Assembly: GCA_049513915.1 (NCBI GenBank)
Contig: JBEKVN010000001.1
Location: forward strand, 224,322 to 288,321
DNA: 64,000 nucleotides
Direction of reading: 5' to 3'
Source of the DNA: Candidatus Aminicenantales bacterium
GTDB taxonomy: Bacteria; Acidobacteriota; Aminicenantia; Aminicenantales; Saccharicenantaceae
Part shown: piece by piece, positions 11,076 to 64,000 of the stretch
Numbering within the stretch: position 1 is the first letter of the stretch
Layout of the letters: every line of letters begins with the position of its first letter
Notes under the pieces: generated by a model
Databases searched by the model: none
Told to the model about the DNA's origin: nothing
Seen by the model: the letters and a program-made list of their open reading frames with translations, nothing else
Position numbers and translations under genes: made by a program

Positions 11076-12347
11076 TTATTTTTTCCGGCGCACCGGCGGC
11101 ACCCAGTTCTCGATGAATCTCCTCCCGCCGCTCTCCCGCTCGTCGACGAGCGCCTGGAAGATGGCCTTCATGTGCTGGTAGGGGAGCGTCCCGATGATCA
11201 TCCGGTTATTGATGATGATGGTTGGCGTCGACCGAATTCCGTGCGAATACTTGTCGGACGTTTTCTCGTATTCGGCGCCGGTGTTGATGATCCTCTCGAT
11301 GAGGTCGCGGATGTTGAGGTCGGCGATGGCCTCCTCCGTGCCGTACTTCTTGGCCAGGGCCCGTCGCCATTCCGGGTTCCGGGCCGACCGGAAATTGGCC
11401 CAGATCTCGTTGTGGATCTCGGGGAACCGGGCCAGGTTCCCGGCCGCGATATAGGCCATCTCGCAGGCGCCGGGGTGGAGGCTGGCCTTTTCGGGGACGA
11501 CGGTGTTGCAGATGCCCTCGAGCGGGAAGAACTGGAAAGCGACATTGATCTTGCCCGCGAACTCTTTGTTCAGCTTTTCGAGCTGCTGGGCGAGGTAGAG
11601 GCAGTCCGGGCAGAGGAAATCGGCGTATTCGACGATTTGGATGGGCGCGTCCTCGAACCGCTCCGTGGACTTTACCGACCAGTAGGGCGAGAGGAAGCTC
11701 GGCGAGGCCACCTTGGGAAGCTCGTAGAACTGCTTGACGATGTTCGCGGCCATCCCCGCCTGGGCGTCTTTCTTCGCGTCGTGATACTGGACGACGCCGT
11801 ACGCGCCGGACGCCGCGATGACGGCGAAAACGGCCAGCAGTTTGACGGACGGCTGGACCCATTGCGAGAAGAGGTTCTTCCTGTCGCGGCCGGTCCCGTA
11901 GATCCAGAACAGGACGAAGCTCAGGATTGAGAACAGGTAAAAGCCCGAACAGAGAAGGCACAGGCTGCCCATGACGAGAAGCGAATAGAGGAGAAGGCCG
12001 ACGACACCCACGACGTTGAGGAGCGCCAGGGCCTTGTTGGTCCGCTCGAACGCCTCGGACGGGATGACCGCGCCGAGCGCCACAAGCGCGCCCAGGAAGA
12101 GGCCGAAGAAGCCGAGCGGGACGCCCATGACCTGGGAGATGGGCGAGAAGGCCGAGCTGTCGCAGTTGAAGAAGGCGCTGATGTCGCAGAAGGAGCCGGT
12201 GAAGATCGTAGCCGGGTAATTGGCCAGGAAAAAGTGGCGGATGGTCAGGGCCGAGGCCGCGATCATGCCCAGTCCCGAGACGAGACTCAGGACGCGGGGC
12301 GCGGTCCAGCCGCCGAGCGTCAGCGTCCGTGGCTTCTGATATTCCAT
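11076..12347 (-). CDS. Vitamin K epoxide reductase (VKOR) - DsbA/thioredoxin fusion
   Basis: VKOR cysteines (FCDIS..FNCD; LCLLC) in the TM domain plus DFLCPDC and STPT in the C-terminal domain; ATG 12347 with RBS GAGGAG. Confidence 0.9.
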   Translation of the reverse strand: MEYQKPRTLTLGGWTAPRVLSLVSGLGMIAASALTIRHFFLANYPATIFTGSFCDISAFFNCDSSAFSPISQVMGVPLGFFGLFLGALVALGAVIPSEAFERTNKALALLNVVGVVGLLLYSLLVMGSLCLLCSGFYLFSILSFVLFWIYGTGRDRKNLFSQWVQPSVKLLAVFAVIAASGAYGVVQYHDAKKDAQAGMAANIVKQFYELPKVASPSFLSPYWSVKSTERFEDAPIQIVEYADFLCPDCLYLAQQLEKLNKEFAGKINVAFQFFPLEGICNTVVPEKASLHPGACEMAYIAAGNLARFPEIHNEIWANFRSARNPEWRRALAKKYGTEEAIADLNIRDLIERIINTGAEYEKTSDKYSHGIRSTPTIIINNRMIIGTLPYQHMKAIFQALVDERESGGRRFIENWVPPVRRKK

Positions 12348-12361
12348 GCCTACTCTCCTCA

Positions 12362-13840
12362 TCACACGGCCGGGGGGCGGGGGATATTCTGCCGTCTGGG
12401 GCGCCGGCGGCGGCGCCGTTTTTCCGGCGGGCGGCCGGTCCCGAACCGGGTATCGAAGATCCGCTCGAACGGGTCTTCGCCCTCGCCAAACGTCCCCTGG
12501 GCGAGGAGGGCGGTGATCCTCGAGGCGAACGGGTAGTGGGCGCGCTTCTTCAACGCCCAGCGCATGCGGCCCGAGGAGAGCGCTTCGAGCATGTGTTCGA
12601 CGATGACGAGCGTCTGGACGGCTTCGAGGAGGATGCCCTTGGGGACGAGGGCGGCTGGCTTGCAGTCCCGGAAGGCCTGGTAGAGGACCTTGGTCTTGTC
12701 TCCCTCCGCGTCGGCAAGGATTGTCCGGGCCCAGGGCCAGAGGAGGAGGGAGTAGATGAGTTCCGGGGCCAGGGGGGCGCCGCGCGCGACGGCGGCATCG
12801 AGGGCGTCGAGATATTCCGTGAGGCGGGCGAAGGCGTCATCGGATCGCTGGTAGAAATCGCCCATCCGGCCGAGGATGACGGGGAGGAGGTCGTGGCAGC
12901 GGGCGAGCTCGAAAAACGGGCGGGCGGCGCCCGACTTCATGTCCTTGTTGAGCTCCTCGAAGAGCCGGGACCCGGGGGCCGCGCCGAGGCGATGGCGGTG
13001 ATAGGGAATGGCCCGCGCCGTGCGCTCTTCGATCGAGAAGCCGAGGCGGGAGGCGTGGCGGATGACGCGCCAGATCCGGACGGGATCCTCCGTGTAGCTT
13101 TCGTCGGGGTCGCCGATGATCCGGACGCGGCTCTGGCGGAGGTCGTCGAGCCCGCCGACGTAGTCGATGACGGAGTAGGTCGAGATGTCGTAGAACAAAG
13201 CGTTGATCGTGATGTCGCGGCGGAAGGCGTCTTCCTGAGGCGTCCCGAAGGCGATGGGCTTGAGCGGCGGCCGGCCGGGGATCGGGATGGGTTTCCGGAG
13301 TTCGGGAGCTGGCGGCGGCTCGACGACATCGTCTTCAGGCGTGGCAGGAGCGGCTTGGACCGCGTTTTGCGGCTCGTGGGGTTCGACGTCTTGTGCGACG
13401 TCAAAAGCGCACGGAGCGGCGGATTCGGCGGCATCAAGGGCCTTCTCTGCCTCGGCCGCCCTCATCTCTTCCTCCCGCTCGGCCCGGAGCTCCTCTTCGT
13501 CCGGCTTTCTGCGGAAGGTGGACACCTCGACGATCTTGTTGCCCTGAAACTTGATGTGGGCCAGGCGGAAGCGCCGTCCGATGAGGAACGCGTTCCGGAA
13601 TAGCTTCTTGATCTGGTTGGGATGGGCGTCCGTGCTGATGTCGAAATCGGCCGGCCGGCGGTCCAGAAGAAGGTCGCGGACCGCGCCGCCGACGAGGTAG
13701 GCGATGAAGCCGTGGCCGTTCAGGCGATAGAGGACCTTGAGGGCGTCGTAATCGATGTCGCGCCGCGAGATCGAATGGCGGGACCGGTCGAGAATGACGG
13801 GGCCGTTGAGCTGGGGGTCGGTCAGGGGTTTATCGTCCAT
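12362..13840 (-). CDS. pcnB: Poly(A) polymerase I-type nucleotidyltransferase
   Basis: LVGGAVRDLLL..DFDI, PAP signature LIGRRFRLAHI, RRDITIN, EDPVRI and an Arg-rich tail. Confidence 0.85.
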   Translation of the reverse strand: MDDKPLTDPQLNGPVILDRSRHSISRRDIDYDALKVLYRLNGHGFIAYLVGGAVRDLLLDRRPADFDISTDAHPNQIKKLFRNAFLIGRRFRLAHIKFQGNKIVEVSTFRRKPDEEELRAEREEEMRAAEAEKALDAAESAAPCAFDVAQDVEPHEPQNAVQAAPATPEDDVVEPPPAPELRKPIPIPGRPPLKPIAFGTPQEDAFRRDITINALFYDISTYSVIDYVGGLDDLRQSRVRIIGDPDESYTEDPVRIWRVIRHASRLGFSIEERTARAIPYHRHRLGAAPGSRLFEELNKDMKSGAARPFFELARCHDLLPVILGRMGDFYQRSDDAFARLTEYLDALDAAVARGAPLAPELIYSLLLWPWARTILADAEGDKTKVLYQAFRDCKPAALVPKGILLEAVQTLVIVEHMLEALSSGRMRWALKKRAHYPFASRITALLAQGTFGEGEDPFERIFDTRFGTGRPPEKRRRRRRPRRQNIPRPPAV

Positions 13841-54504: not shown

Positions 54505-55416
54505 TTACCGGTTGAAGCTCCGGCCGATGAAGCTCAGGCCGTCGACGATCCCGGTGCGCCAGTACACCCAGGTGTGGGCACCGTCGCGGACCCGGAATTC
54601 GTGCGGAATTTTCCGGTCGTTGAGGAGGATGTGGAGGGCGCAATTGCCCTTGATGAGAAAGTCGTCGTCGCCGCAGTCGATATAATAGCGGACCTTCTTC
54701 AGGGAATCCTCCGGCAGGGTCCTGGCAAGCTCGAGCGGACTGTACATCCGGAAATGCGGCGTGAGACGGTTTTTGCCGGCGAGGCCGGGCCCGAGCACCG
54801 GGCCGACCACCTTGTCCCACGTGTCCTGCTTCATCGACACGATTTCATCATCCGGCCAGACGGCGGCGCTGAAAGCGGCGCAGGCCGCGAAGACATCCGG
54901 GTGGCGCAGCGCGTAGACGAGAGTGCCCCATCCGCCCATGGACAATCCGGCGATCCCGCGGAACTCCCGCTCGGGCCGCGTCCGGTAGGTGGAATCGATG
55001 TGGGGGATGAACTCCTGGATGAACATGTCCTCGAAACGGACCTTGTTCTGATAGTCGTTGACATACCAGGTGACGCCGCCGTCGGGCATGACGATGATCA
55101 TCGGGGGAATCTCCCGGTCCGCGATGGCCCGGTCCGCGGCCATGTTGACCTCGCCGAACTGGACCCAGCCCGACTCGTTGTCCGTGTAACCGTGAAGCAG
55201 GTAGACGACGGGGTAGCGGCGCGTGGAGGTCGCGTAGTCCGCCGGCAGGTATACCGCGTAATGGACATCCCGGCCGAGGATCGCGCTGGTCAGGTGGAGA
55301 CCCTCCAGGACTTGGCCCATGGCCGGCCCCTCCCGGGAATAGAGCGGAAGGCCGGTCGCGATGGCCATGACCAGGACCGTTGCGAAAGCCGCGATCAACG
55401 CTTTGGAGTTCTTCAT
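54505..55416 (-). CDS. Secreted esterase family alpha/beta hydrolase
   Basis: YLLHG, GLSMGG, DCGDDD and DGAHTW motifs; signal peptide. Confidence 0.9.
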   Translation of the reverse strand: MKNSKALIAAFATVLVMAIATGLPLYSREGPAMGQVLEGLHLTSAILGRDVHYAVYLPADYATSTRRYPVVYLLHGYTDNESGWVQFGEVNMAADRAIADREIPPMIIVMPDGGVTWYVNDYQNKVRFEDMFIQEFIPHIDSTYRTRPEREFRGIAGLSMGGWGTLVYALRHPDVFAACAAFSAAVWPDDEIVSMKQDTWDKVVGPVLGPGLAGKNRLTPHFRMYSPLELARTLPEDSLKKVRYYIDCGDDDFLIKGNCALHILLNDRKIPHEFRVRDGAHTWVYWRTGIVDGLSFIGRSFNR

Positions 55417-55528
55417 GCTGGCCTCCTTCCCGGCTCCGCGTCCCTTCGGGCTTTCGGCCGGCGCGAGCCGACGACGGGGGAACGCCTGAGGCCGGTCAGG
55501 GAAATATAGTGGCGGACGGGGCCCGGCG

Positions 55529-56215
55529 TCAAGACGGGTTCTTTTTCTTGGTGCTGAGCGAGATACCGCCGCCGGTCGAGGTGTCGATGACCGTTTCCAT
55601 GTAGTCGAGCCCGCGGACGTAGGCGAGGAAATCCCGGATGCCCTGCATGAAGCCGAGGCTGACGACGTTGTGGACGGCGAAACAGCCGCCGACCTCGAGC
55701 TTGGGCAGGAGGGCCTTGAAATAATTCAGGGTCCAGTTCTTGTCGGCGTCGATGAAGACGAAATCGAAGGGGCCGGGAAGCTCCTGGACGAGCTCGTGGG
55801 CGTCGGCCAGGCGGGCGTCGATGCGGTCCTCGAGCCCAGAGGCCTTGAAATTCTGGACGGCGCGGAGGTGGCGGAACTCGTCGATCTCGATCGTCACGAG
55901 CCGGCCTCCGGTCTTGCTCAGCGCCCAAGCCTGCCAGATCCCGGAATGGCCGGTCGACGTCCCGATCTCCAGGGCCCTGGTATAGCGGCGCTTAAGGATG
56001 AGGTCGTGCAGGAACCGGCCGTCGGCCTCCGTGACGTTTTCCTCGCGCCACTGGTCTTTTTGCGACTGGAGGAAGTTCCAAACCCTATCGTCGAGGGCCT
56101 TCGAGTCGGGGGCAGGGGTTTTTTGCTGAGGGGAAGCCGTCCCGGCCGGCCGCACGACAAGGGGCGTGAGCGCAAGGAGAACCGTCAAAAGAAGGGCCCG
56201 AACGCTGGATCTCAT
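55529..56215 (-). CDS. Class I SAM-dependent O-methyltransferase with signal-peptide-like N-terminus
   Basis: LEIGTSTGHS, FDFVFIDADK and AVHNV motifs. Confidence 0.88.
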   Translation of the reverse strand: MRSSVRALLLTVLLALTPLVVRPAGTASPQQKTPAPDSKALDDRVWNFLQSQKDQWREENVTEADGRFLHDLILKRRYTRALEIGTSTGHSGIWQAWALSKTGGRLVTIEIDEFRHLRAVQNFKASGLEDRIDARLADAHELVQELPGPFDFVFIDADKNWTLNYFKALLPKLEVGGCFAVHNVVSLGFMQGIRDFLAYVRGLDYMETVIDTSTGGGISLSTKKKNPS

Positions 56216-56337
56216 CTTGTTCCGCCGAGGCCTGGGGAATGCCCCTTATCTGGAGACAGGGAAAATTCTGGTCCCACGCCCAATCAAAATATACGGGAGC
56301 CGGCGTGGGAAGTCAAACAGGAGGAAAGCGTCCGCAC

Positions 56338-56373
56338 AAAAAAAAGGGCCGCCCCCCAACGGGGGGCTGCCCT
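56338..56373 (-). terminator. Rho-independent terminator downstream of the Sec-thioredoxin-TPR gene
   Basis: Minus strand AGGGCAGCCCCCC-GTT-GGGGGGCGGCCCT followed by a T8 run. Confidence 0.85.
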
Positions 56374-56401
56374 CTGCAAACGACTTCGTGACTTCGCCGC
56401 C

Positions 56402-57970
56402 CTACTTTTTCGCGATGGCGTCCTTGATGTCCTTGACGAGCTTGTCGTACTGCTGGGTCGAGAACCCTTCATACTTCGCGGCGATGGGTTTGACGAGCTC
56501 GACCGCTTTTTCGGCGTACGTCAGGGCCTCATCATTCTTTTTCAGCTTGAAGAGGAGCTTGGCCAGCGTGTAATTATTGTAGTAGTCGGAGGTGAGCTCG
56601 ACCGACTTCCTGGCCGCTTCCAGGGCGCTTTCGAGGTTCATGCCCTCTTGATTCTTGCCCTGCCGGCTCCAGAACGACGCGTAGCTCGCGAGGATGTTCT
56701 GGTCCCCCATGTTGGCCTTGATGAAGGCCGGTCCGTATATGGCCAGGGCCTTCTCGGGCTTGTTCAGCTTGGCGTAGATTCCGGCCACGGTTTGGAGCGT
56801 GTACCACTGGGAGGCGGGGGCCATCTTGACCGCCGTGTCTGCGGCGACCTCGACGCTGTCCAGGTTTTTCCCCTGCTCGATCCAGAAATTTGCGTACCCG
56901 GTCAGGGCATAAACGGCGTTCGAAACGTAGCCGTCGATGAAATCCTTGCCGTATTCCTCGTCGGCCTTGGCCGCGTCGCCCTTGAGGATGTACAGCTGGG
57001 CCAGGTTCTGGACGTATTGGGGATTGCGCGGGTAGCCCTGGATCTCCTTGACTTTTTCGGCCAGTTCGATGCCCTTGTCGAGAGGCGCCTTCTGCTTGAC
57101 GATCCACTCGACATAAGAATTGAGGGCTGAGGCGTCCTGGGGATACTTGGCGGTATATTCTTCAAGGAATTTCTGCGCGTCGGCCTTGCCTGCGGCATCG
57201 CCAGGAGCATTGTACTGATAATACTGGGCCAGATAGGAATAGGCTTGCTTGACGAGCGGGCTCTGGGGGTACTTGGCGATGAAATTCTTAAGCGGTGCCG
57301 CGTCGGGCTTGCGGGCGTAGATGCTCTCCTGGCCGAGCTCGAACTCGGCGGCCTGGGTGTACGGGACCGTGGCCTTCATGTACTCAAAAGTGTAATTGCC
57401 CGCCTTCCCCTGGGGGTCGATGGCGATGACCTTCTGGTAGAGCTCCTTGGCCTTTTCCGGCATCGTGTAGCGGCTGGAGGTCTTCTGGGCGAGCTTGAAA
57501 ATGACCGGAACGTTCGTCGGCTCCTTGGCGTACTTCGCCGTGAGCGCCTTGTAGGTCTCCTCGCCGGTCAGGACCTTCTGGAGCTTTTCCAGGAACTTGT
57601 CGGCGGGAGGGCCGTAGCCGACGATCCAGTCGACTTCGTTGCCGTCCTTGTCGACGAAGAGCTCGGTCGGCGTGGCCTGGACGTTGAATTTCGTGTAGAT
57701 CGCGTCACCGATCTTGTCGCCGCGGCTGGCGCGGTACACGATGAAGTTGTTGTTGAGGAAATCGGCGTACTTAGGGTTGTTGTAGAACTGCTGGACCAGC
57801 AGTTTACAGGCCCCTCAGCCACTTGAGAAAAAATCGACGAGGATGAGCTTGTTTTCCTTTTTGGCCTGGGCCAGCGCCTCGTCGAACGGTCCGCTCATGA
57901 TCTTGGCGGTTTGGGCCGTGGCGAACGAGGCGATGAGCAGCAGGCCGGCGATCGCGGTCAGCTTTTTCAT
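56402..57970 (-). CDS. Putative selenoprotein: signal peptide - thioredoxin-like domain (UGAC, Sec at codon 52) - TPR repeats (522 aa)
   Basis: RBS GGAGGA, ATG 57970; LVDFFSSG-TGA(57817-57815)-GAC continues in frame into the tracked 445-aa ORF; cis-Pro-like ATPT motif; SECIS-like hairpin. Confidence 0.85.
57786..57804 (-). promoter_or_regulatory. Bacterial SECIS-like hairpin AACTGCTG-GTC-CAGCAGTT
   Basis: Starts 10 nt after the in-frame TGA; perfect 8-bp stem with GU in the loop. Confidence 0.75.
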
Positions 57971-58006
57971 TCAGTCCTCCTAAGATTGAGACGCGTCTTT
58001 CCGATT

Positions 58007-58035
58007 AACATATAGAATCCGGCGGGAAAACGCAA
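58007..58035 (-). promoter_or_regulatory. Sigma70-type promoter TTGCGT-N17-TATGTT
   Basis: Upstream of the first Sec-thioredoxin-TPR gene. Confidence 0.45.
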
Positions 58036-58087
58036 TATATCCATCCGTCCTTAAATACGTCTCGACCCGGAGAAAGGTTGCGTTCGG

Positions 58088-59647
58088 CTACTTCTTGATG
58101 TCCTCGCCCTTCTCCTTGGCCATGGCGGTTTTGATTTCCTGAACCCGGGCCTCGTAGGATTTGATGGCGAAACCGGGTCTCCGCTTGGCCGACTCCCGGG
58201 CCAAGGCCAGGGCGCGTTCGGCCGATTTGAGGGCCTCGTCGTAGTTCTTGAGCTTGAGCAGGATCTGGGCCTGGATGTCAAAATACGTGAGCTGGGGTTG
58301 ATATTCGATCAATTTCCGGACCGCATCCAGGGCGCTTTCCAGGTTTTTCCCTTGCTGGTTCCAATACCATGCATATGCGTAAAGGGTATCGCTCTTGTCC
58401 AGGTTCTTTTGAATATAATCCGGGCCGAACATCTCGAGGGCCTTGTCCGGCCTATTCAGCTTGGCGTAGATCGTGGCGGCTGTCTGGCGGAGATAAGGCG
58501 TATCGGGCTGGACCTTAACGGCGAGCTCGATGGCCTCGACGGCCTGGTCGAGGTTGGTGTCCCGGTCGTTCCAGAAACCGGCATAGCTGCTCAGAAGGTA
58601 GGAGATCTCGGATTTCTGGTCCTTGAGGAATTGCTTCCCGAAGATTTCCTCCGTTTTGGCCTTATCGTCCTTGAGCCAATACAGTTCGGCGCGGCTCCGG
58701 AGAAAGTAGGGGTCGACATACTCCGAAGGGAGGCTGGGGATCTTTCCGGCGAGCTCGAGGCCCCGGTCGAGGGGCTCCTTGTCCTTGATAATCCGCCGGA
58801 CATAGGAGTCCAGGACCCAAGGGTCGTCCGGGTAATTGGCGACATAGTCTTCAAAGAACTTTTGGGCTTGGTCTTTCGGAGCGTAGTAGCCGTAGTACGT
58901 GCTCAGCCAGGAATATCCCGTCTTGACCAGCTGGCTCTGTGGATACTTGCGGAGAAACGCCCACATCAGGTCGGGGGCTGAGCTGAGCCCCATGGCGGCT
59001 TTCCTGGCCATGATGAACTCGGCATATTCGGTGTAAGGCACCCGGACCTTGGGATAATCGACGTCGGTCAGGCCGGCCTTGCCTTCCGGGTCGAGCGCGA
59101 CGATCTGCCTGTAAAGCTCGTCGGCCTTGGCCGCGGTCGAAAATTTCTGGTCGTATTTTCTGGCCAGCTTGAAGATGACTTCGATATTTTTCGGATCCTT
59201 GGCGTAAAGGACGGACAGGGACTTGTATGTGTCGACCCCTGCGAGGGATTTTTGGATTCTCTCGAAATACACCTCGGCCGGAGGGCTGTAGCCCACGATC
59301 CAATCGATCTCATTGCCGTTCTTGTCGAGGATAAGGACGGTCGGCGTTGACTGGATTCCAAATCTGGTGAAGATGGACTCCCCGGTCAGATCGCCCCGGG
59401 TGGCCCGGTAGAGGACGAATGTCTTGCCCAGGAAATCGGCGTACTTGGCGCTTTCATAAACCTGCTGGACCAGCAGGTCGCAGCTCCCTCAGCCGCCGCG
59501 CTGGTGGAAATCGACGAGGATGGGCTTGTTTTGCTTCTTGGCCAGGGCCAGGGCCTCGTCGAAGGGCCCCTTCAGGAATGTCGGGGTCTGGGCGGAAGCC
59601 AGGGAAGCGATGAGGAGCAGTCCGGCGAGCGCCGTGAGTTTTTTCAT
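58088..59647 (-). CDS. Putative selenoprotein paralog: signal peptide - thioredoxin-like domain (UGSC, Sec at codon 53) - TPR repeats (519 aa)
   Basis: ATG 59647; ILVDFHQRGG-TGA(59491-59489)-GSC is in frame with the tracked 402-aa ORF; N-terminus is highly similar to the paralog; STPT motif. Confidence 0.85.
59460..59478 (-). promoter_or_regulatory. Bacterial SECIS-like hairpin ACCTGCTG-GTC-CAGCAGGT
   Basis: Same 10-nt spacing from TGA; compensatory A-T to C-G pair change relative to the paralog. Confidence 0.75.
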
Positions 59648-59724
59648 GCGGCCCTCCAAAAGCGGGTTCCTATTATCGGAATATACTCTGAAGTGGCGGG
59701 CGCAGGCAAGCTCGGCTTTCTCTC

Positions 59725-61698
59725 CTATTTCTCTTTCTCGAGCTCGACGAGCATGCCGTCGTCTGAGACGAACTTTAGACGATAGAGCGACCGGCCGATC
59801 GGAATATGGCTCGTTCCTTCGTGGACGGGGACCCAGTCATCGCCTTTCTTCATTTTGAGCTTGAGGAAGCCCGGGGCGGTCGTGTCTTCCTCTGTCAGGA
59901 GCCGGTCGCCGTTTAAGTCGGCGATTTCAAGCGCATATTGGGTCTTGTCGACGAAAAAGGCCCCCTCGGAGCGCACGATTGAGCCAAGGCCGAAGACTTC
60001 CGGCGCGCTTCCCGCCGGGCCCGGCTTTGCGTAGAAGCGCATGCCGAGGAAGGCGATGCCGCCGCTGGCCCAGGGGACCCGAATGTTCACCTCGACCATT
60101 TTCAGGATATCCGGCGACGGCTCCGTCAAGATGGGAATGTCATACCCCGTGCCCTTTGTTAAATCAAAATCGTGATTGGTGTCGATAACAATGTGAATCT
60201 TGCCGACGGCCGAGCTGGCATAAGCGACGAGGACGGTTCCGTTCGTGAGCAATCCGACCGTGGCGTCTTTCCGCAGGCCCTCCGGCATCTTCAACCGGCC
60301 CGACTTGACGAGATCCCAGACCTTTTGACTCCTAAAGTCGACCTTAATCGTCGGACGCGGTTCCGGGGCAGGTCCGTATTTCGCAGAGCATGGAATAAAA
60401 AGCGTGTTGTCGGGGCCATTGGGGTCATTGAAGTGGGCATCCAGAAACCGCTCCATTTTTCTATAATCTTTGGTTGCGTAACGGGCGATCCCTTGCTCGT
60501 CGATTGCGATATACATGGGGAAGCCCTCCCCATCCTCAGGCAAGCAGCCGAAAACTTGACAGACGGGATGAAGCAAACCCTTGCCCTCGATAACTTGAGG
60601 CCAGGTTAGCTGATAATCAGCCATCACCTTTTTACCAGCCTCGACTTTCTCCGCGACATCGACGTTGATTCCGACGACGGCAAATGACTTTTTCTCAAAC
60701 CTCTGAATCATCTTCTTGATATCTGGGAATTCGGCGATACAGGGTTTGCACCAAGACGCCCAGAAGTCGAGGAGAAGGACTTTGCCTTTAAAATCACTGA
60801 CGCGGAATAATTGTCCAGCCATGTCCGTCATCTGCAAATCGGGGGCCGGTTTCCCCAACGCCGCGGCGGGGAGAGCGCTCTTGACGATCTCGATCCAACT
60901 TCCGTCTTCGGCAATCCCTTTGAATTCGTATAAGTCGCCGGCAAGAGGAATCCTATTCTGGAAACGATAGAATTCTCCGCCTCCGGAGTCCATTTCGCTT
61001 TTCAATCCTATCTGGATATTAGTGTTGCTCTCCTTTTCCCTATAAAAGTGGCCGTTGGCATCTCCGTCCATAAGCCGGAGTCCGTAATCATGGTTTTTCA
61101 GGCGGAATTCACCATCATACCGATAGATCGCGACCAAAAAGATATGCTCCCTAATTTGGCCATCGCGCCCCTTATCCTCTTCATATCCGATGCGGTAGGA
61201 CAGCCATTCAACATGCGGCGCCGGTTGGCCGTACGTGCGGGCGATCTTCACGACAGTGCCCTCATCCCAATTTTTGCACACGGGAAGTTCCAGAGCCTTG
61301 TCGTCGGTTAAATCGCGGTTCGCATTGACGTCCAGCGTCAATCTGGGGGTCGGCCGACCCGGCGTTTTTTCTAAGAGACCGAAGAGGGGGCCGGAATAGC
61401 ACATAACCACTTGGGTGTTTGCCGGTAGGGGTTTGGGAAGCATGACTTTGTATTTTTCGACTGCCTTGGCCACTCTCTCCTTATCAAAATCGAAGGTTTG
61501 GCCAATCCCGATCACCACGTTATCGACCCGATGAAGATCAACGTGAATCTTTTCTTCCTGGGTTCTTGACTCCAGCTGGGAAACGTCTTTCGCGAGCTGG
61601 CCGGAGTCGGCCTGGCCCAAGGGCATTCCGGCGGAAAACGCGATGATGACCAGGATGCCCATAGCCGAAAGAAAAGCCAATCTCTTTAGCGTTATCAT
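59725..61698 (-). CDS. Secreted TlpA/redoxin family protein with a central thioredoxin domain flanked by duplicated unknown domains
   Basis: DFWASWCKPC motif; signal peptide from ATG 61698 (GGAGG); similar N- and C-terminal domains. Confidence 0.85.
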   Translation of the reverse strand: MITLKRLAFLSAMGILVIIAFSAGMPLGQADSGQLAKDVSQLESRTQEEKIHVDLHRVDNVVIGIGQTFDFDKERVAKAVEKYKVMLPKPLPANTQVVMCYSGPLFGLLEKTPGRPTPRLTLDVNANRDLTDDKALELPVCKNWDEGTVVKIARTYGQPAPHVEWLSYRIGYEEDKGRDGQIREHIFLVAIYRYDGEFRLKNHDYGLRLMDGDANGHFYREKESNTNIQIGLKSEMDSGGGEFYRFQNRIPLAGDLYEFKGIAEDGSWIEIVKSALPAAALGKPAPDLQMTDMAGQLFRVSDFKGKVLLLDFWASWCKPCIAEFPDIKKMIQRFEKKSFAVVGINVDVAEKVEAGKKVMADYQLTWPQVIEGKGLLHPVCQVFGCLPEDGEGFPMYIAIDEQGIARYATKDYRKMERFLDAHFNDPNGPDNTLFIPCSAKYGPAPEPRPTIKVDFRSQKVWDLVKSGRLKMPEGLRKDATVGLLTNGTVLVAYASSAVGKIHIVIDTNHDFDLTKGTGYDIPILTEPSPDILKMVEVNIRVPWASGGIAFLGMRFYAKPGPAGSAPEVFGLGSIVRSEGAFFVDKTQYALEIADLNGDRLLTEEDTTAPGFLKLKMKKGDDWVPVHEGTSHIPIGRSLYRLKFVSDDGMLVELEKEK

Positions 61699-61824
61699 AC
61701 GGATGACCTCCCTGGCATGAAGCGGGAAACCCATCGCCCCAGGTTAGAAGTCGCTCGAGGGCCCGCTTGTTGCCTGCCTCGCGAATCATCGGACCGAAGG
61801 CGGAGATTGTCAAGCCTTGCGGCG

Positions 61825-62835
61825 CTAATACCCGGCTTCGTCCAGACCGGCTTTACCTTTGAACACCCGGTACGCGTAGATCGTGTAGCCGATGACAAGC
61901 GGCATGCCGACCAGGGCGATGATCAACATGACCTTGAGGGTTAGGGCGCTCGACGAGGAGTTCGTGATCGTCAGGCTCAGAGCCGGATCAGTCGCCCGGA
62001 CTAGGTTCGGATAGTGGATAGCGCCGATATTCCCCCACAGGCTCAGAAAGATGAGCGAGGAGAACGCGAAGGCACGGCCGTCTTTCCGCCTTTTGAGGGC
62101 CGAGATAAGGAATCCCAGAGAAAGCCAGACGAGGGCGGCGAAAATCCAGGCCGCGATTCTTTTCAGCGCTCCGGGGAGATAAATCCAGACGGCGACGAAG
62201 GACAGCAAGTAAAAGATCCCCGTGAGCACAGTCATCTTCCGTGCCGTTCGCCTCGCTCTTTCCTGGAGCGCGCCCGACGTTTTGAGCGCGGCCCACGCGC
62301 TTCCGTGGAGGAGGAAAGCCGCCAGTCCGAGCAGGCCGAAAACGAGGGGCAGCGGCCGGAGGAGCGTGAAGAAGTTCCCGGCGTATTCCATCTGTGCGTC
62401 GATGGGAACCCCCACGACAACGTTGCCCAGGGCCACGCCGAAGAGCAGGGCGGGGAGGAGGCTCCCGATGACGAAGGCCGCTTCCCACAGCCCTTTCAGC
62501 GCCCCGTCATGCGTCCGGAACTCGAGCGACACGGCCCTCAGGATGAGAGAAAAGAGGACGAGCATCAGGGCCAGATAAAATCCGCTGAAGACCGTCGCGT
62601 AGGCATGCGGGAATGCGGCGAATAGCGCGCCGCCTCCGGTGAGAAGCCAGACCTCGTTCCCGTCCCAGACGGGACCGATAGACCTGACGAGAAACGTTTT
62701 CTCGCGCTCGTCCCTGGCCAGGAATGGGAAGAGGACACCGACGCCGAGGTCGAAGCCGTCCAGGACGGAATACCCGGCGAGGAGAACGCCCACCAGCAGA
62801 AACCACACGTTGCGAAGGAGGGCCCAGGTTTCCAT
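61825..62835 (-). CDS. cydB: Cytochrome bd ubiquinol oxidase subunit II
   Basis: LDGFDLGVG, PVWDGNEVWL and FPHAYA motifs. Confidence 0.95.
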   Translation of the reverse strand: METWALLRNVWFLLVGVLLAGYSVLDGFDLGVGVLFPFLARDEREKTFLVRSIGPVWDGNEVWLLTGGGALFAAFPHAYATVFSGFYLALMLVLFSLILRAVSLEFRTHDGALKGLWEAAFVIGSLLPALLFGVALGNVVVGVPIDAQMEYAGNFFTLLRPLPLVFGLLGLAAFLLHGSAWAALKTSGALQERARRTARKMTVLTGIFYLLSFVAVWIYLPGALKRIAAWIFAALVWLSLGFLISALKRRKDGRAFAFSSLIFLSLWGNIGAIHYPNLVRATDPALSLTITNSSSSALTLKVMLIIALVGMPLVIGYTIYAYRVFKGKAGLDEAGY

Positions 62836-64000
62836 CACAGGCCTCCTTGCGGGGCCGCCTTGGCCGGTTCGTCGAACCCTCTCCTGACCAGCTTGAGGAT
62901 GATCGAAAGGCCCGCCGCCGCGATCAGCGTGTAGATGGCCGCGAACAGGACGAGCGAGAAGAGGATATTCCCGGCGGGCACGACCTTCGACGCGGCGTCC
63001 GCCGTCCGGAGGACCCGGTAAACCGCCCAGGGCTGGCGGCCGACCTCGGCGGCGATCCAGCCGAGCTCGTTGGCGAGGTAGGGCAGGGGGATGGCCAGGA
63101 TGATCAATTTGAGATAGGCGCGGCTCTCCCCGAGCCTTTTCCGCGCGAGCAGGCCGGCGCCCCAGACGGCCATCGCGATGAACAGGAGGCCGAAGAGGAT
63201 CATCAAGTGGTAGCCGGCGAAGGGAAGGAAGACGGGCGGACGCTCATCCTTGGGAAATTCGTTCAGCCCGAGGACCCTGGTGTTCATGTCGAAGCCGACC
63301 AGGAAGCTGAGAAAGCGCGGGATCCTGACGGCGAGATGCGTCCGCTCGTTCTTCTCGTCGGGGATTCCGAAGATCGTGAACGGCGCCCCCGACTGCGTTT
63401 GCCAGAGGGCTTCGAAGGCGGCCATCTTTTCCGGCTGCGTGCGGGCGACTTGGACGGAGTGGGCGTGGCCGGAGCCGAGTTGGAGGACCGCCGTGACGGC
63501 AAAAACGATGACCGAAACCCTGAGGACGAGAGCCGCCTTTTCCCGGGATCTCCCCTTGAGCAAATGCCACGCGGCGATGCCCGCGGCCACGAGCGACCCC
63601 GTGATCCAGCCGCCGAGGATCGTGTGGACGAACCGGACGACCGTCGAAGGATTAAAGGCGGCCTGCCAGAAGTCGGTGAGCATGGCCCGCCCGGCCTCCA
63701 TGGCGTATCCGGCCGGCGTCTGCATCCAGGAGTTGGCGATAATGATCCACAGCCCGGAGAGGTGGGAGGCGAAAAAGACCAGGAAGGCCGAGAGCCAGTA
63801 CATTTTCGGGGAGACCCGCCGCCGCCCGAAAACCAGGATACCGATGAACACGGATTCCAGGAAGAACGAGAACACGCCCTCGGCGGCGAGCGGCGCGCCG
63901 AAGATGTCGCCGACCGCCCGCGAGTAGGCCGACCAGTTGTTGCCGAAGGCGAACTCGAGGGCGATGCCGGTCGCGACGCCCATAACGAAAACGACGCCCA
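62835..64000 (-). CDS. cydA: Cytochrome bd ubiquinol oxidase subunit I (5' end outside window)
   Basis: EGVFSFFLES, ANSWMQTP, QPEKMAAFE and AEVGRQPW motifs. Confidence 0.95.
   Translation of the reverse strand, partial: GVVFVMGVATGIALEFAFGNNWSAYSRAVGDIFGAPLAAEGVFSFFLESVFIGILVFGRRRVSPKMYWLSAFLVFFASHLSGLWIIIANSWMQTPAGYAMEAGRAMLTDFWQAAFNPSTVVRFVHTILGGWITGSLVAAGIAAWHLLKGRSREKAALVLRVSVIVFAVTAVLQLGSGHAHSVQVARTQPEKMAAFEALWQTQSGAPFTIFGIPDEKNERTHLAVRIPRFLSFLVGFDMNTRVLGLNEFPKDERPPVFLPFAGYHLMILFGLLFIAMAVWGAGLLARKRLGESRAYLKLIILAIPLPYLANELGWIAAEVGRQPWAVYRVLRTADAASKVVPAGNILFSLVLFAAIYTLIAAAGLSIILKLVRRGFDEPAKAAPQGGL

Follow-up and report, generated by a model that had tools for sequence, protein, structure and literature searches.

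Two adjoining genes on the minus strand of a 64,000-nucleotide (nt) stretch of Candidatus Aminicenantales DNA, between positions 56402 and 59647, very probably encode intact selenoproteins in which an in-frame UGA specifies selenocysteine (Sec, U) at the first Cys position of a thioredoxin CxxC motif. That whole stretch is referred to here as the window, coordinates follow its numbering unless a contig is named, and contigs C14, C18, C26, C45 and C50 belong to the same genome. Gene 1 (56402-57970, minus strand, 522 codons) and gene 2 (58088-59647, minus strand, 519 codons) share one predicted architecture: a signal peptide, a thioredoxin (Trx) fold with the motif UGAC in gene 1 and UGSC in gene 2, and a superhelix of tetratricopeptide repeats (TPR). 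Our high confidence belongs to the selenoprotein gene model only and does not carry over to the models of client binding and redox direction that are discussed further on.

Two open frames interrupted by a single UGA

A first-pass annotation of this region had claimed that both of the open reading frames (ORFs) listed for it were N-terminally truncated, and that the missing portions lay upstream of an in-frame TGA at the first Cys of CxxC, giving UGAC and UGSC. Both claims are borne out on the minus-strand frames. Under translation table 11, gene 1 yields only a 445-residue frame (56402-57739) that starts from an internal GTG at 57739, and gene 2 only a 402-residue frame (58088-59296) that starts from an internal GTG at 59296. 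When the TGA is read through, the two frames are open from ATG to stop, with exactly one TGA and no other stop or frameshift in either. The codon corresponds to Sec52 in gene 1 (57815-57817, minus strand; ...LILVDFFSSG-U-GAC-KLLVQQ...) and to Sec53 in gene 2 (59489-59491, minus strand; ...ILVDFHQRGG-U-GSC-DLLVQQ...), and the two proteins are 48% identical over their entire length.

The upstream portions look like the beginnings of real genes. Each ATG is preceded at 5 nt by a Shine-Dalgarno sequence on the minus strand, AGGAGG at 57976-57981 for gene 1 and GGAGG at 59653-59657 for gene 2. The N-termini, MKKLTAIAGLLLIASFATA and MKKLTALAGLLLIASLASA, each followed by QT, read as typical type-I signal peptides with an AxA site; in gene 1 the predicted signal peptide covers residues 1-19 (57914-57970, minus strand), with cleavage between ATA and QT, and falls in a part of the AlphaFold2 (AF2) model where the predicted local distance difference test (pLDDT) is below 50. 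A17, A19 and Q20 of this region are invariant among the aligned full-length members of the family.

Conservation of the UGA codon and its Cys counterparts

Homologues were sought in a single genome for each species. The scan gave 38 loci, almost all of them carrying the label Aminicenantes, and 37 included the active-site region. The first-pass annotation had noted that the position of the TGA was the same in the two paralogues; it is in fact the same in every homologue from these 37 assemblies, about 45 genes in all. The codon is also found in distant metagenomic relatives (L057-L062, L088, L089 and L091). Cluster representatives at 26-33% identity all start with 'MLDQQFF...', just past the motif, and the DNA upstream of them contains a signal-peptide stub that ends in TGA, which makes them the same split gene. 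Where the site does not hold TGA it holds Cys. Such homologues are more distant but have the same architecture; among them are P0124 (CQGC), at 42% identity, and many WCxPC or WCGWC forms. Cys likewise occupies the TGA column in P0222, P0235, P0236, P0250, P0255, P0262, L063-L074 and others. Each of these Cys homologues is one continuous protein. When Sec is written as C, the TGA column and the resolving Cys are both invariant in our alignment (A2).

The DNA ahead of the TGA behaves as coding sequence. Over the 50 codons before it, the differences among 42 homologues at codon positions 1/2/3 number 6662/1998/10952, from which it follows that this segment evolves as coding and in frame, and substitution patterns on either side of the TGA indicate purifying selection. 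This bears on the possibility that the genes are pseudogenes, or that a Cys codon was turned into TGA by a mistake in sequencing or assembly. TGA is only one base away from TGC or TGT, which gives such an error an easy route, but about 50 genomes and metagenomes, each assembled independently, carry the same TGA, as do all four paralogues in this genome, genes 1 and 2 contain no further lesion, and selection appears to act on both sides of the codon. We therefore give this explanation next to no credence, and the concern about the assembly that accompanied the first-pass annotation is answered by the same observations.

A more serious competitor is that the UGA is a true stop, so that each locus makes a 51-residue secreted stub and, from the internal GTG, a separate cytoplasmic TPR protein. 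This is what table-11 ORF calling gives, and all database entries inspected for the family are fragments of this kind: N-terminally cut proteins of 349-447 residues called 'TPR repeat protein' or 'hypothetical protein', just as the first-pass annotation had anticipated for standard gene calling. Against it, termination here would split a thioredoxin fold, leaving beta1 and the active-site turn before the TGA and alpha1 and the cis-Pro loop after it. The internal GTG has no Shine-Dalgarno sequence ahead of it, the Cys homologues are continuous single proteins, and both the frame and the position of the TGA are kept down to 26-33% identity. The TGA forms, and only these, also have a covarying hairpin past the codon. 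Taken together, these points make a true stop very unlikely, and we continue with the selenoprotein model.

A hairpin downstream of the UGA

Shortly after the UGA, both genes can form a hairpin resembling a bacterial selenocysteine insertion sequence (bSECIS). In gene 1 it reads AACUGCUG-GUC-CAGCAGUU (57786-57804, minus strand) and starts 13 nt on from the U of the UGA, occupying positions 14-32 on a count in which that U is 1, with a G at position 22 in the loop; in gene 2 it reads (G)ACCUGCUG-GUC-CAGCAGGU(U) (59460-59479, minus strand) at the same spacing. The stem has 8-9 base pairs, with minimum free energies of -19.1 and -18.4 kcal/mol for the two genes, and gene 2 differs from gene 1 by a compensatory change of A-U to C-G. 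Across 22 distinct sequences, pairing is kept in 99.4% of cells and both sides have changed at 4 of the 8 pairs. None of 500 shuffles reached any of the observed measures, and control stems slid along the sequence pair at only 17-61%. The loop G at position 22 is invariant. One of the paired changes, CUG...CAG to UUG...CAA, is synonymous on both sides, which argues that selection acts at the level of RNA. In the Cys homologues the hairpin is missing, with 0-5 of the 8 positions able to pair.

In the bSECIS model, a stem-loop whose small apical loop contains a conserved G stands just 3' of the UGA, within a defined distance of it; the model is reportedly due to Zhang and Gladyshev in 2005. The hairpin described here fits it, with an 8-base-pair stem at +14 to +32 and an invariant G22. 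Folds of the 110 nt that follow each UGA show it at the canonical distance, and no conserved second element that would be required. One result speaks against this identification: an Rfam scan of positions 56000-60000 at E <= 1 matched no family to the hairpin or to anything else. To our knowledge, Rfam holds no model for bacterial SECIS elements.

Selenocysteine machinery and the genetic code

The genome appears equipped to decode UGA as Sec. Profile searches identified selA (567 bits), selD (365 bits) and selB (353 bits), each past its curated cut-off, as neighbours of one another on contig C18 (45766-50373), and a tRNA-Sec(TCA) was found on contig C50, so that all four of selA, selB, selC and selD are present. 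The search of the rest of the genome that the first-pass annotation had called for thus turned out positive.

Translation of UGA as Trp or Gly under a reassigned code (table 4 or 25) would also open the two frames, and three Joint Genome Institute (JGI) proteins, P0010, P0011 and P0077, do read ...SSG-W-GxC... at this site. These calls come from contigs of 1.4-2.3 kb, where the gene caller is suspected of having chosen the wrong code. In the genome studied here TGA is the stop of 1775 among 3430 long open frames and outnumbers both TAG and TAA, and selA, selB, selD and cydB all end normally under table 11. A Trp in place of the CxxC nucleophile would moreover kill the redox site, and homologues carry Cys there. 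Because TGA is the commonest stop of the genome, we regard a reassigned code as excluded for practical purposes. The same three JGI entries are the full-length versions of the family in the databases, with Trp at the Sec codon, apparently the result of a switch by the caller to TGA=Trp.

Domain architecture

The first-pass annotation had also described a signal peptide, a TPT cis-Pro motif and TPR repeats, and all three can be recognised, TPT being T100-P101-T102 of gene 1. The best Pfam match of both proteins is Thioredoxin_2 (PF13098; 45.1 and 41.2 bits against a cut-off of 27), and Thioredoxin_7 (PF13899) also matches both (36.1 and 36.3 bits, cut-off 27). These matches span residues ~25-130, and the C-terminal half gives weak TPR matches. 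An AF2 model of the gene 1 product, built on 31 sequences, reached a pLDDT of 92.3 and a predicted template-modelling score (pTM) of 0.78, with the signal-peptide region disordered. Combined with Pfam and Foldseek, it delimits a thioredoxin-fold domain of the Thioredoxin_2/_7 type at residues 23-135 (57566-57904, minus strand) and an all-helical TPR superhelix at residues 140-521 (56408-57553, minus strand), about 390 residues of uninterrupted paired helices. In the model, U52 stands immediately ahead of a helix (53-63) and the T100-P101-T102 loop ahead of a strand (102-106); P101 and T102 are conserved in at least 90% of the 31 aligned sequences.

In a PDB search with the family profile, the Trx part matched the Bacteroides 'putative disulphide isomerase' 2kuc (E 1e-32). 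Foldseek aligned this part to 2kuc, 2ju5, 2lst and 4ip1 with template-modelling scores (TMt) of 0.69-0.77, and the matches include Chlamydia DsbH (2ju5), a Thermus thioredoxin and the DsbD gamma domain. The helical part resembles generic TPR superhelices in both kinds of search, among them OGT, SPINDLY and the periplasmic adaptor LbcA. Within the TPR region of gene 1, a motif of the form Y-A-x-F-W-x(3-5)-G-x-N-L-(D/E)-S-A-L recurs at residues ~355-375 and ~425-450. A 733-residue relative, P0125, has this Y-A-x-F-W unit about six times, and the TPR array thus seems to grow by unit duplication.

Paralogues and family history

The first-pass annotation called genes 1 and 2 a tandem pair. The two adjoining genes are real, but the genome carries four paralogues of the thioredoxin-TPR selenoprotein and not two. 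The third (C14:36672-38189, plus strand, L085) and fourth (C45:7763-9271, plus strand, L086) have one active-site TGA each, in the motifs UASC and UGSC, are 47% and 43% identical to gene 1, and possess the same hairpin. The further statement that duplication combined with export is unusual went too far, since exported-type UxxC selenoproteins have already been published and tandem copies occur in six other loci (L020, L027, L028, L031, L042 and L044).

In a maximum-likelihood tree of 47 family members, 27 long-form proteins of ~500 residues form a clade with 99% support that comprises 26 Sec proteins and one Cys protein, P0124. On this evidence Sec is the ancestral state of the ~500-residue clade, and P0124 is a secondary reversion. 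The WCxxC Cys forms fall outside the long-form clade, and the tree as a whole requires no fewer than three switches between Sec and Cys. Genes 1 and 2 and their two paralogues on C14 and C45 are placed in two old sub-clades, so that the paralogy is older than the diversification of the group. The distant Sec members L060, L061 and L062 (UGPC, ~31% identity) have a lipobox-like N-terminus, LLTAAGC or LLAAAAC, in place of AxA, so that some clades may consist of lipoproteins.

Gene neighbourhood

Upstream of gene 2 the order is a TlpA-like gene, then cydB, then cydA. The first of these (59725-61734, minus strand) encodes a 669-residue membrane-anchored AhpC-TSA/Redoxin protein with the motif WCKPC and lies between gene 2 and cydB. 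It was not at the equivalent place in any of 37 related loci, and thus looks like a lineage-specific insertion into a cydAB-selenoprotein cluster. The gene for cytochrome bd subunit II, cydB (61825-62838, minus strand), owes its name here to an identity of 58-85% with the cydB homologues of related loci. About 30 related loci share an order in which cydB is followed by one or two selenoprotein genes, then by an O-methyltransferase and then by an esterase. This synteny is gone in more distant relatives, which weighs against a working connection and suggests that the order next to cydAB may be inherited rather than a sign of functional coupling. We treat the link to cytochrome bd as a lead only.

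Downstream, at 54505-56215 (minus strand), the window contains a class I O-methyltransferase with a signal peptide (Methyltransf_3) and a secreted esterase (PF00756), and in almost every close relative these two come after the selenoprotein genes. An exported methyltransferase dependent on S-adenosylmethionine would be odd, as this cofactor is not expected outside the cytoplasm. A strong intrinsic-terminator-like hairpin, GCCCCCC-GTT-GGGGGGC followed by a T run, stands 35 nt past the stop of gene 1 (56351-56367, minus strand). Ahead of gene 2, a sigma-70-like promoter match (59680-59709, minus strand) agrees at 9 of 12 positions and is weak evidence. The plus-strand ORFs over both genes (55670-57130, 58298-58981 and others) were taken as antisense shadow frames in a genome of 62% GC and rejected as genes; among the family matches, none was a homologue of their own.

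Possible mechanism and redox direction

By analogy with the established bacterial mechanism, SelB-GTP-Sec-tRNASec would bind the hairpin and deliver Sec to the UGA, yielding one protein of ~520 residues, and failed insertion would give just a harmless 51-residue stub. The AxA signal peptide would then take the protein through the Sec translocon to the cell envelope and be cleaved off, leaving a mature protein made of a DsbD-gamma/DsbH-like thioredoxin domain and the ~390-residue TPR superhelix. There, clients among the envelope proteins would be held by the TPR domain. Their disulfides or sulfenylated cysteines would come under attack from the Sec52/53 selenolate, and the resulting mixed selenenylsulfide would be resolved by Cys55/56.

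The idea that protein clients are selected or held by this array comes from the architecture, which makes it plausible. Against it, the neighbours of the four paralogues share no common partner, those at the paralogue loci including a Maf-methyltransferase, a secreted Met-zincin (DUF4953) and a histidine kinase. The Met-zincin gene precedes the paralogue on C45.

As to the direction of electron flow, we think a DsbC/DsbG/CnoX-type role in reduction, isomerisation or repair more likely, at roughly even chances, than an oxidase role, which seems rather improbable. Three features typical of DsbC/DsbG-type proteins underlie this preference: a Thr that precedes the cis-Pro, a small dipeptide of the form Gly-x, and a fold like that of DsbD-gamma/DsbH. 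Several findings pull the other way. No match to DsbD/CcdA (PF02683) was found in the genome, an absence that is not certain at 94% completeness, and 10 of 14 control genomes were positive. The only match to DsbD_2 (PF13386), at C26:7311-7868 (L084, 1366-2085, plus strand), is a 239-residue membrane protein with one Cys. A 429-residue VKOR-DsbA fusion with a DsbA-like CPDC domain is encoded at 11076-12365 (minus strand); DsbB was not found in the genome, and the fusion is the only quinone-linked disulfide-forming module found there. The DsbD_2-matching protein also has an extended loop rich in His, HAHAHIHGHDGAHEHTHTH, and resembles a metal transporter more closely than it does a thiol-disulfide conduit.

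The presence of VKOR and the missing DsbD conduit keep alive a rival built on the same gene model, in which the proteins would be envelope disulfide oxidases or scavengers of peroxide or sulfenate, with electrons passing via VKOR-DsbA and quinones to cytochrome bd. The position of a selenoprotein gene directly after cydAB in about 30 related loci would suit it, and Sec accelerates exchange in both directions. However, VKOR has its own DsbA-like domain, a Thr ahead of the cis-Pro and a fold like that of DsbD-gamma/DsbH typically mark reductases and isomerases, and the other paralogues and the distant relatives lack the cydAB synteny. We therefore consider such an oxidase or scavenger unlikely, and continue to lean towards the reductive, isomerase or repair role.

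A broader and more speculative proposal, which we put forward as doubtful, is that Aminicenantia and related lineages maintain envelope thiols in a selenium-dependent manner by means of Sec-ancestral exported 'chaperedoxins', each a Trx domain with a TPR clamp for clients, up to four per genome and without DsbD/CcdA, and that in the clade of the window these are tied to cytochrome bd as an oxygen-stress module of an otherwise anaerobic organism. If true, redox repair in the periplasm would here follow a pathway that draws on a new source of electrons. For envelope redox biology, the family raises the question of how the selenenylsulfide of an exported protein would be reduced or oxidised again in a bacterium where DsbD/CcdA was not found.

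Comparison with known systems

The cytoplasmic CnoX/YbbN of E. coli and Caulobacter would be the best functional analogue, though not a demonstrable relative, of the proteins described here. Both combine a redox Trx-fold domain with a TPR domain, which in CnoX binds clients, and it is this two-module logic that underlies the model in which a client is held while its cysteines are protected or repaired. CnoX/YbbN proteins differ in having ~280 residues and Cys or Ser rather than Sec, whereas genes 1 and 2 have a predicted signal peptide. Membership in that family was considered and rejected: the 60 best PDB matches by sequence and the 50 best by Foldseek included no CnoX structure.

For the Trx domain taken by itself, the closest solved relatives are the DsbD gamma domain, DsbH (2ju5) and 2kuc, which are periplasmic proteins of the Thioredoxin_7 type. 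They have Cys rather than Sec and no TPR, and DsbD comes with the membrane electron conduit that was not found here. The curated NCBIfam Trx-like selenoproteins have in common with genes 1 and 2 a Trx-like domain and a Sec in the redox motif. None of the models tried accommodates the family: Trx7/PDZ (NF041199), VPGUxxT (NF041382/3) and TsoB (NF045694) score 16-39 bits against cut-offs of 275-805. The best of these, TsoB, reaches 39.4 bits against 805 and matches through a C-terminal DsbD-like part only, and Trx7/PDZ differs in having CxxU where genes 1 and 2 have UxxC. NF041046, a model for a UGSC-containing protein, gave no match at E <= 0.01, though gene 2 reads UGSC.

No kind of predicted bacterial selenoprotein is commoner than the UxxC thioredoxin-fold proteins, and those of envelope type already published include DsbA-like and DsbG-like proteins and a PF13098 'thiol:disulfide interchange protein' (PMC13188914, PMC1088965); thiol-disulfide-isomerase-like selenoproteins are a related class (PMC1088965). 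The 2026 inventory of the prokaryotic selenoproteome (PMC13188914) lists the predicted UxxC PF13098 'thiol:disulfide interchange protein' (its ref. 12), and this generic row is the only one that our family matches. Common to both are the Trx fold, Sec in place of the first Cys of CxxC, an envelope-type oxidoreductase, a hairpin after the UGA and the existence of Cys homologues; what sets genes 1 and 2 apart, as far as descriptions go, is the C-terminal TPR superhelix of ~390 residues. The words TPR and tetratricopeptide do not occur in the text of the inventory, and in the literature searched no paper contained both 'selenoprotein' and 'Aminicenantes'.

The family is thus an uncatalogued addition to a well-known kind of selenoprotein and not a new kind of system, and it leaves the known principles of Sec decoding and Trx chemistry unchanged. 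With its database entries cut short at the N-terminus, the catalytic domain and the export signal are invisible to function prediction in what amounts to hundreds of metagenomic genes. Relative to the selenoproteins known so far, the thioredoxin-TPR family adds a widespread, Sec-ancestral clade to the selenoproteome of Acidobacteriota/Aminicenantia, a phylum that is barely represented in the selenoprotein literature searched.

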